From Thelocarpon superellum (taxonomy: Eukaryota): a stretch of DNA of 46,508 bases. The position numbers and the translations under genes were made by a program. Positions 34,791 to 37,675 of this stretch are shown here, one piece after another. The stretch covers positions 1-46,508 of the forward strand of contig JAPEUG010000102.1 in assembly GCA_026025795.1 (NCBI GenBank), in the 5' to 3' direction. The number at the start of each line of letters is the position of its first letter. The stretch's first letter is position 1. The notes under the pieces are model-generated. The model made no database searches. It was given only the letters and a program-made list of their open reading frames with translations, and was not told the origin of the DNA.

Positions 34791-34971
34791 AGCATAAGTG
34801 GCGCTTATGTAAGCGTCAGATGAGCTCCGGGGAGTATGAGACTACCACACGTCGAGGATAGTATGACCATGACATTCATGCGCAGGCAAATTTATTCTTC
34901 TTGAATACCGGCAGGATCTCAATGTGAATGGATGAGACCTGGTTGACCTTCGCCCTCCCCCAGGCACCGAC

Positions 34972-35742
34972 ATGCCTTCCCTCCTTCTCACCGTGTTCGT
35001 GCTACAAATCGTCATCAGTGTGGTCAACACCATCGGCGTGTCGACGCTCAACAGTCTCGTGAGTGCCCCCGCTAGCTCGGGAGAGGTCCACACTGATGCT
35101 TCCTAGCTCTGGTTCCTCTTCACTCGAATACCTACTCCCACATCCAAGGCCGTGCTCAGCCAACGAAAGCTCCAACGCGAGTTTCTGCGGCAGCGCGCCG
35201 AGCTGAATGGCATCAGCAGCCAGGACCAGTTTGCCAAGTGGGCAAAGCTTCGAAGACAGCACGACAAGACCGTGGCAGATCTAGAAAAGACGAGTACGTG
35301 ATGGGCGATACCAGGTGAATCTGCTGCATGTTCATCCTTTTGACGCAGCGACTTAGCAAACACCATCAACGCCTCCAAAGCTTCCTTCGACCAGTCAGTA
35401 GTGCTGGTTCGATGGACGGCTACGAATGGCTTGCGGTTATTTCTACAGTTTTGGTACGCCAAGGAAGCATTGTTCTGGCTCCCGCAGGGCTGGCTCCCGT
35501 ACTACGTGGAGTGGCTCCTGTCCTTTCCCCGGGCGCCTCTGGGAAGCGTCAGCATCCAGGTCTGGGGCGGAGCGTGTTTGGCTGTGATTGACCTGGTCAG
35601 CACTGCACTAGTGGCGTTGTATTCAGTGATCACGTCGTGGACATCAAGCGGGGAGAAGGGTGAGGCACAGGCGTTCAGAGCGAGCCATAGCCCAGCAGCA
35701 GGAGCAGAGAAGGTTGGGTCGGACCCGAAGAAAGAGTTGTAG
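34972..35742 (+). CDS. GET1: GET complex insertase subunit Get1 (CHD5-like); exons 34972-35058, 35107-35293, 35357-35742
   Basis: N-terminal TM, ISSQDQFAKWAKLRRQHDK, FWLPQGWLPYYVEWLLSFPRAPLGSVSIQVW. Confidence 0.94.
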
Positions 35743-35851
35743 ATAAATATGCACAGTTCTATGGTCCGCTCAGGACATAGCGTATGTCATCAGCGCTGCG
35801 CCGTTCAGGCATTCCAAAGGTCAACTCGATCCGATCATCGTCATCTCAGAC

Positions 35852-36002
35852 TCATGTCTCTCAACAGATAGACGCAAGGGACCTCAAAGCCGCAGCTTAG
35901 ACCTTGCAACACGAAGTGAGAATGTAACATCTCGGCATATCTTTTTGACTCTGAGTGACCACGGAAGAGAGAGGTGCGCCAAAGCTTCGAAAGTGCCGTT
36001 TT
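35852..36002 (-). ncRNA. snR46: Box H/ACA snoRNA, snR46-like guide for LSU rRNA Psi2865 (yeast numbering)
   Basis: Hairpin 1: CGGCA/UGCCG lower stem, pocket UCGAAG (35985-35990) and UCAAAAAG (35941-35948), complementary to rRNA CUUUUUGA-U-N-CUUCGA, upper stem CUUUG/CAGAG. Hinge AGAUGU (imperfect H box). Hairpin 2: UUCUCA/UGAGAG and GCAAGG/CCUUGC. ACA at 35855-35857. rRNA context and snR46 target recalled from yeast. Confidence 0.78.
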
Positions 36003-36466
36003 GCGAATCCTCATAGGGCGTTGGGAAGACAATGGAATGGGCGAGTGACGAAGGTAGATAGACATTGGTGCTATGTAGAATGGAACAAGGACGTCGGCGA
36101 TCAATGGACCATCGCCGGTGCTGCTGTCTGAGTAGGAAAGAGTAAAGAGTAGTACGATGGGGATGAAAAGAGTGGTGGTAGACGCACAGTTGGTTAGGTT
36201 GTAGCTCTCGTTGACTTGGCTTAGGCGGAAGGCGAGCGCAGGTGAGGTCTAGCCACGTTAGTTCTGACGCGACTGCGAAGAGAGCAACGCGCTTGATTCG
36301 CCGCGACCGTTGCAGCCAGATGTTCGCATAGCCACGCAGACGCATGTTCAGAGCCACGAAGCCCCCCCACCAACATCATGCTCCGTGGTCCGTCATCGAG
36401 GACCGGTAAAGGTGCCAACCAGAGTGATTGCGACTCCAGGAGGGCCTCTTGACGCCCATCGCAAAC

Positions 36467-37675
36467 ATGGTGTCGTGGTCAACGTGAGTCATTCAGTAAC
36501 CCCGCCAGGCATCCATCTCGAATTAACCTCACCCCGCCCTGCGCAGCCTCCAAACCCTTCTCTTCACCCTGGCACCACTCCTCCTCCCACGCCTGATCTC
36601 CTATTACCGGTCGATGCGCTCGTCCGCGGCCAGCACAGCTGGGATATCAGTGCAACGTGCACCAGTGTCAGCCAAACGAGCATTCAATGTGCTGTTTGTC
36701 AGCGCCGCCCTGGCCCTCGTCTCCACCCTGCCCTACTTCCAACCACCCAACATCTTCCTCCAGACGCAATCCCGGATCCAGATCCCCACCGACGTGCTCT
36801 TCACTCGTCTCTCCGCCCTCCACCCTCTCTCGGCCACCGAAGAAGCCCTGCAGCAGAAACTCGTCTCCTTTGAAGCCCGCCTCCTCTACTTCACCTACGG
36901 GCCGGATCCACTGGCCCACTGCCGTTTCTGCAACAGCGACGACATCACCTCCTACCTCTACTATGCGCTCCCCTCGATCCTCATCCCGCACCTCGTCCAC
37001 CTCGTCTTCCTGGGCCTTGCAACGTCCACCCTGATCTGCGGCGGCCGCGAACCCGCCAAATGGCGGACCGTGGCAACATGCAGCAGCATCTTCCTGGCGC
37101 TGATGGAGATCTACTGCGTGGGGAGCCACAACCACAAGCTCAACACGGCCGCGCAGCGGGTGGGCGACATTGACTTCTTCCACTGGGACGTGCTCACGTA
37201 CCGGGGACTCTCCATCGCCGTCACGGACGCCGTGCTGGCCGGACTCATCTACCTGTCCTCGACGAACAGGATGTTCGTGACGCCGCTCACGACCGCCGAG
37301 CGGCTCGAAGTCAGCACGCGCATGCTGGAGGCAGCGAATAGCAAACTGCACGCCGCGGGCGTCACGAGGAACGCCATCTTCCGCGACGAGACGCTGCGGC
37401 GCAAAACGGCGGCCTATTGGGACGTCGAGGGCCGCGTGACGCGCGAGCTGTTCGAGGAGCGCGAGGTCGTCGAGGGCATTCGCGCAGCCTTGGGCCGCGT
37501 CGACGTCGCGTCCATTGGCCTCGAGGCCGGCCGGTTCGCCGATACCCTCGTTGGGGGCGTCCAGCTTGCGCCTCGACCGGAGGCGCAGGCCCAGGCCCAG
37601 ACCCAGGCCCAGGTGCAGGCACCGGGGCAGGTCCCAGGAGGTGGTACGAAAGAGGGAGACGTGGCGGCGCCGTGA
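36467..37675 (+). CDS. Conserved fungal multi-pass membrane protein of unknown function; intron 36484-36546
   Basis: MVSWSTLQTLLFTLAPLLLPRLISYYRS; several TM segments; PNIF..TQSRIQIPTDVLF.RL, RLLYF.YGP, CRFC, YLSSTNR motifs. Confidence 0.8.

Follow-up and report, generated by a model that had tools for sequence, protein, structure and literature searches.

A putative snR46-type H/ACA snoRNA followed directly by a candidate box C/D snoRNA on the minus strand of a fungal contig

The minus strand of the analysed window (the whole stretch of DNA, 46,508 nt) probably encodes two ordinary snoRNAs arranged end to end, an snR46-type H/ACA RNA (~36000-35852) and, immediately behind it, a box C/D RNA (~35851-35764). 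A preliminary description of the region had proposed that the H/ACA RNA was enclosed by a box C/box D kink-turn, forming a composite C/D-H/ACA RNA. The H/ACA part consisted of the following elements:

35998-35933, minus strand: H/ACA 5' hairpin, identified by folding
35932-35927, minus strand: H-like box AGAUGU in the hinge, 16 nt after the 5' upper stem
35921-35859, minus strand: H/ACA 3' hairpin, fold of -19.4 kcal/mol
35857-35855, minus strand: ACA box, 16 nt after the 3' upper stem

Folding revealed the hairpin-hinge-hairpin-tail arrangement with an internal pocket in each hairpin. The 5' hairpin was closed by the CGGCA/UGCCG stem and its upper stem was formed by CUUUGG (35984-35979) and UCAGAG (35954-35949), with UCGAAG (35990-35985) and UCAAAAAG (35948-35941) as the guide strands of the pocket. 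The 3' hairpin had UCUCA/UGAGA as its lower and GCAAGG/CCUUGC as its upper stem, and its pocket strands were CUUCGUGUU (35916-35908, 9 nt) and GUCUAUCUGU (35873-35864, 10 nt). The pocket geometry was alike in both hairpins, with 16 nt between the upper stem and the box. The target uridine of H/ACA RNAs lies 14-16 nt before box H or ACA, and the ACA box is located 3 nt before the mature 3' end (the ACA+3 rule); from this rule the mature 3' end of the RNA is expected at 35852. The hinge box, earlier called degenerate, indeed departed from the H consensus ANANNA, at the last position only, which is U. The minimum free energy fold of the whole stretch was not H/ACA-like and its stability was no better than that of shuffled sequences (z-score -0.08), a result to which little weight was given. 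A UGAG tetranucleotide, the sequence of a CAB box, was present at 35886-35883 (minus strand) in the stem or internal-loop part of the upper 3' hairpin and not in the terminal loop, which is UGCG.

The 5' pocket predicts a target of the form 5'-CUUUUUGA-UN-CUUCGA-3'. The window is without rDNA, and fragments of eukaryotic LSU rRNA were taken from IMG/VR contigs. Among 118 loci that matched a sarcin-ricin-loop motif in these contigs, three (L066, L094 and L103) were 3' LSU fragments according to Rfam, L094 scoring 323 bits against the eukaryotic LSU rRNA model. An exact stretch of L094 used as a probe yielded a further fragment, L120, of 1,241 nt, and a scan for an rRNA source with an 18S primer motif gave 0 matches. 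A single site for the 5' pocket was found in L120, pairing with the two pocket strands over 8+6 bp, all of them Watson-Crick. The same site was present in the Rfam LSU_rRNA_eukarya consensus at positions 2866-2881, with the target U at model position 2874; the consensus reads GCUUUUUgAUCCUUCGAUGUCGG between model positions 2865 and 2887. To obtain yeast numbering, 15 yeast 25S modification positions taken from sections of PMC5699541 and PMC8307265 were compared with L094 at 20 offsets. The best offset put 14 of the 15 sites on the right base, the other 19 reaching at most 7, and it placed the target U of the 5' pocket at yeast 25S position 2865 (psi2865). In the same sections of PMC5699541 and PMC8307265, psi2865 of yeast 25S rRNA is assigned to snR46.

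The snR46-type identity of the H/ACA RNA, already named in the preliminary description, was therefore upheld by a fully Watson-Crick pocket at the U equal to yeast psi2865. In the Rfam comparison that had been suggested as a check, SNORA16 (RF00190), which we take to be the human counterpart of snR46, was the only Rfam family matching the 171-nt H/ACA stretch (12.9 bits, E-value 1.9), and its consensus had the words UCGAAGCU and GUCAAAAA in common with the H/ACA RNA, but the SNORA16 gathering score of 35 was not reached and no family passed its gathering threshold anywhere across the 46,508 bases. No site for the 3' pocket was found in L120 (1,241 nt), which covers about one fifth of the rRNA and lies within at most the last third of the LSU. 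Taken at the level of sequence, the assignment of the candidate to H/ACA snoRNAs of the snR46/SNORA16 type is supported, and the U that its 5' pocket would convert to pseudouridine lies in the peptidyl-transferase centre and equals yeast 25S psi2865. The RNA is like yeast snR46 and SNORA16 in its two-hairpin layout, in UCGAAG and UCAAAAAG, which occur in the SNORA16 consensus, and in the same predicted target U; unlike them, it has an H box ending in U, a low Rfam score and a C/D snoRNA directly after it. A search for both strands of an snR46-type pocket also gave 12 matches in viral contigs, which were rejected as coding-like by eye and near a rough chance estimate.

Directly downstream of the expected H/ACA 3' end, the elements of a candidate box C/D snoRNA were identified:

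~35851-35764, minus strand: box C/D snoRNA of ~88 nt, starting right after ACA+3
35851-35847 and 35768-35764, minus strand: terminal stem of 5 bp, GUCUG/CGGAC, -6.5 kcal/mol
35844-35838, minus strand: box C AUGACGA (variant)
35837-35809, minus strand: first guide region, 29 nt
35808-35805, minus strand: box D' CUGA
35792-35787, minus strand: box C' UGAUGA
35786-35774, minus strand: second guide region, 13 nt
35773-35770, minus strand: box D CUGA

The terminal stem joins boxes C and D through the pairs G35851-C35764, U35850-A35765, C35849-G35766, U35848.G35767 and G35847-C35768, and the internal D' and C' boxes are separated by a linker of 12 nt. The C-D'-C'-D layout occurred at one locus in 46.5 kb (two strands) and in 0 of 200 dinucleotide shuffles; the search pattern was drawn up after the site had been seen and corresponds to the textbook architecture. 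A terminal stem of at least 5 bp had a chance level of 0.029. Such a 5',3'-terminal stem is present in most C/D snoRNAs according to the relevant section of PMC10557570.

Two features of the boxes were counted against the presence of two ordinary snoRNAs. Box C is a variant and the perfect boxes are C' and D', an inversion of the usual pattern, and an A.G mismatch adjoins the kink-turn bulge of the C/D snoRNA. A kink-turn needs the U-G-A and the G-A of box C, and AUGACGA keeps them. The alternative box C registers GAGAUGA (35847-35841) and ACGAUGA (35841-35835) were rejected, as they lose the U before GA and have no terminal stem. All six weak Rfam matches on the C/D stretch (99 bases) were to archaeal C/D sRNA models, with 7.8-12.5 bits vs gathering scores of 38-45, and most of these alignments were in register with the boxes. 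The candidate thus resembles canonical C/D snoRNAs in its normal box spacings, its 12-nt D'-C' linker and its 5-bp terminal stem, and differs from them in its box C, in the A.G mismatch beside the bulge and in matching no named family. In addition, a D'/C'-like K-loop composed of CUGA, a 3-nt loop GAU and GACGA can form within the segment GUCUGAGAUGACGA (35851-35838, minus strand), whose bases can equally be read as CUGA, GA and UGACGA. The sR30 model aligned with GUCUGAGAUGACGA in this K-loop form. The K-loop is a third structure competing for the CUGA at 35849-35846.

For the C/D guides, no acceptable rRNA site was found in 1,241 nt of foreign LSU rRNA (about one fifth of the rRNA), and no guide matching the downstream C/D snoRNA appeared in the Neurospora guide list of PMC2780460. 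Inspection by eye and a short-word search showed no obvious orthologue of either RNA among the H/ACA and C/D RNAs tabulated for Neurospora (PMC2780460, supplements 2, 4, 5 and 7). PMC2780460 includes Neurospora probes under the names snR46A and snR46B, and the corresponding RNAs are not among ACA1-20. The sole match to the C'-guide-D pattern in a metagenome scan (L119) was AT-rich and coding-looking, with no snoRNA context, and was judged to be due to chance.

Both RNAs would derive from one minus-strand precursor, which we infer, as we do their expression, mature ends and cleavage. As a rule, C/D proteins fix snoRNA ends at the terminal stem and H/ACA proteins fix them at ACA+3. The H/ACA proteins would here set the 3' end at 35852, and the 5' end set by the C/D proteins would fall at the terminal stem or slightly within it (35851-35848), so that a spacer of 0-3 nt would remain between the two snoRNAs. 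Because the ends would be fixed by each protein set, one cut within this spacer would release both RNAs. The short spacer is unusual and was counted against two separate snoRNAs, as was the organization reported for Neurospora, where, in the section of PMC2780460 on genomic organization, clusters are C/D only, introns host one snoRNA each and most H/ACA genes stand alone.

In known polycistronic units, the neighbouring snoRNAs are separated by dedicated cuts. Rnt1 cleaves between the snoRNAs of yeast units, as described in part of PMC10557570, and in the S. pombe snoU14-mamRNA pair Pac1 cuts at a conditional hairpin, according to part of PMC12508059. The locus is like these units in that two snoRNAs are probably carried by one precursor; unlike them, it has a spacer of 0-3 nt, no visible RNase III-type hairpin and a mixture of H/ACA and C/D RNAs. 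No AGNN-capped hairpin was seen between or beside the two snoRNAs. The signs of a host intron were limited to a single 5'-splice-like site (GTGCGT, 36187), and neither the branch point nor the 3' splice site had a convincing candidate.

The motifs on which the proposed kink-turn had been based were located as follows:

36014-36008, minus strand: AUGAGGA, box-C-like or kink-turn-like heptamer in the leader
36010-36004, minus strand: GGAUUC(G), 5' strand of the proposed closing helix
35849-35846, minus strand: CUGA, the proposed 'box D', starting 5 nt after ACA

The positions reported earlier for AUGAGGA, ACA and CUGA on the minus strand were confirmed, and the distance from the end of AUGAGGA to the first H/ACA hairpin (start at 35998), given as about 10 nt, was measured as 9 nt. 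The pairing of GGAUUC with GAGUCU (35853-35848) after a tandem GA/AG was found exactly as claimed: the juxtaposed G36012.A35846 and A36011.G35847 are followed by G36010.U35848, G36009-C35849, A36008-U35850, U36007.G35851, U36006-A35852 and C36005-G35853. A seventh pair, G36004.U35854, is also possible and would give 7 contiguous pairs. The outer terminal stem was likewise as short as had been stated, stem I of the kink-turn being the single pair C36016-G35845, so that a canonical stem I of the U85 type is absent.

The chance level of this closure was estimated with 200,000 flank pairs drawn from the window. A GA/GA juxtaposition with at least 6 pairs was obtained in 0.5% of draws when both flanks were random and in 2% when only the upstream flank was random and the real, GA-rich downstream flank was kept. 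When the four H/ACA stems were enforced, the ensemble probability of the six closing pairs was 0.69-0.73 and that of the seventh 0.07, and the closing helix contributed -3.8 kcal/mol; the energy of the GGAUUC/GAGUCU duplex was -5.8 kcal/mol. The closure, which was spotted post hoc, is therefore uncommon by chance, not extreme, and physically plausible. The chance level of the C/D terminal stem (2.9%) resembles that of the closure, and this was counted against the interpretation as two snoRNAs.

The two helices compete for the same sequence. Three of the four bases of the proposed box D (35849-35847) belong to the 5' strand of the C/D terminal stem, and since both helices draw on the same bases they are mutually exclusive, the terminal stem being slightly stabler (-6.5 vs -5.8 kcal/mol). 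From 35845 onward, the 3' bases needed for stem I of the kink-turn coincide with box C of the downstream C/D snoRNA. If two snoRNAs lie end to end, the presumed box D would be a piece of GUCUG, the 5' strand of the C/D terminal stem, and the pairing of AUGAGGA and its flank with GAGUCU would be fortuitous, at most a transient precursor fold.

It seems rather unlikely that the H/ACA and C/D units are functionally coupled, either as a tandem RNA of ~240 nt or by a switch in GAGUCUG, with the AUGAGGA/CUGA fold acting as a real, transient Snu13 site. The switch taken separately was considered unlikely: GAGUCUG would pair with the upstream GGAUUC or with the downstream CGGAC and in this way order or couple the assembly and processing of the two snoRNPs. 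The near-equal stability of the exclusive helices (-5.8 and -6.5 kcal/mol) speaks for such a mechanism, as does the fact that each helix is uncommon by chance on its own, and conditional structures order the maturation of co-hosted snoRNAs in S. pombe according to part of PMC12508059. The switch is nevertheless drawn from one sequence, and no RNase III-type signal (AGNN tetraloop) lies nearby, the flanks giving only CUAA and CCAA tetraloops.

The tandem arrangement, a single bifunctional H/ACA-C/D guide RNA of ~240-250 nt whose domains are never separated, appears very unlikely. Only 0-3 nt lie between ACA+3 (35852) and the C/D stem (35851), which would leave little space for an endonuclease between the bound RNPs. 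Each domain, however, has its own complete end-defining elements, and no precedent was found in the parts of the fungal literature consulted (PMC2780460, PMC5824354).

In the presumed 5' leader, a local hairpin was observed at 36095-36117 (minus strand) with a 7-bp stem CGGCGAU/AUCGCCG and a 9-nt loop lacking an AGNN tetraloop; it could be an element related to processing or termination. AUGGUCC (36106-36112) is exactly complementary to GGACCAU (35761-35767) on the minus strand, and these 7 bp would enclose the whole two-snoRNA unit. The complementarity is about at chance level, a rough estimate giving ~0.6 such matches between two 100-nt flanks.

The proposed composite, in which a guide-less C/D kink-turn (AUGAGGA and CUGA, bound by Snu13 and C/D proteins) would enclose the snR46-type domain and protect its ends as in U85-type scaRNAs, is highly improbable. 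The motifs and a non-canonical stem of 6-7 bp are present, with a chance level of 0.5-2%, and the helix reaches a probability of ~0.7 when the H/ACA stems are enforced. The composite is nevertheless not supported, because the CUGA sits in the GUCUG stem strand of the neighbouring C/D snoRNA, the helices are exclusive, stem I has 1 bp and there is no space for a methylation guide, CUGA starting 5 nt after ACA and AUGAGGA ending 9 nt before the hairpin, so that an antisense element is absent. Moreover, a complete C/D snoRNA takes its terminal stem and box C from CUGA and its 3' flank, and a composite RNA protected up to ~35842 would destroy this snoRNA; the two could not exist on one molecule. 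C/D motifs carry U.U at position 3b.3n, and the proposed kink-turn has G.U there. As alternative partners of AUGAGGA, D' (35808) and the terminal D (35773) were rejected for irregular loop sizes or a failed stem I.

U85 is a composite with a C/D core that stands by itself, according to part of PMC4041459. The H/ACA locus is like U85 (SCARNA10) in having a C-like motif upstream and a D-like motif downstream of the H/ACA domain. Unlike U85, it has a stem I of 1 bp, no methylation guide, a D-like motif claimed by another snoRNA and no UGAG in a terminal loop, the only UGAG being the stem-located one at 35886-35883. Neither a composite nor a mixed unit was noted in the parts consulted of the survey 'The fungal snoRNAome' (PMC5824354) or in the section on genomic organization of the Neurospora study (PMC2780460). 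More broadly, a limited literature search, within the portions of the papers it reached, brought up neither a composite C/D-H/ACA RNA from a fungus nor a pair of H/ACA and C/D RNAs that abut, in agreement with the earlier statement that no such description was known. A true fungal composite RNA would be surprising, and the evidence is against it.

If the locus indeed holds two adjacent snoRNAs, an snR46-type H/ACA RNA and an unassigned C/D snoRNA would be added to the annotation of a fungal genome, in a region that is silent in Rfam at curated thresholds. It would also illustrate how a box motif belonging to one snoRNA may be misread as capping the adjacent one. The feature of interest to specialists is the near-zero spacer between an H/ACA and a C/D snoRNA and the way in which both ends arise, as in known fungal units the snoRNAs are kept apart by introns or RNase III sites.

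The snoRNA unit is flanked by two genes on the opposite strand:

34936-35742, plus strand: GET1/CHD5-like gene with at least 3 exons (PF04420)
35344-35742, plus strand: last exon of the GET1/CHD5-like gene (PF04420, E-value 2.6e-28)
36614-37675, plus strand: predicted membrane protein of 353 aa, no Pfam match

The 3' end of the C/D snoRNA is separated by ~22 nt from the stop codon of the GET1/CHD5-like gene at 35742 and the two units are convergent, so the transcription units would overlap or terminate head-on. The gene for the 353-aa protein is divergent from the snoRNA unit and may therefore share with it the promoter region at 36100-36600. A telomere-repeat-like word, AACCTAACCA, was found at 36191-36200 (minus strand), ~190 nt upstream of the H/ACA hairpin; AACCTAACCA resembles the Tbf1-type sites reported for ascomycete snoRNA and ribosomal-protein promoters. 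Two open reading frames, of 87 aa and 157 aa, cover the locus; a search with their translations for mis-called ORFs in relatives gave no match at E-values up to 0.01.

The four IMG/VR contigs that bear 3' parts of eukaryotic LSU rRNA (L066, L094, L103 and L120) are filed as viral. The rRNA was confirmed by Rfam RF02543 in L066, L094 and L103, and L120 has an exact 25-nt stretch of L094. All four are probably misfiled eukaryotic DNA.
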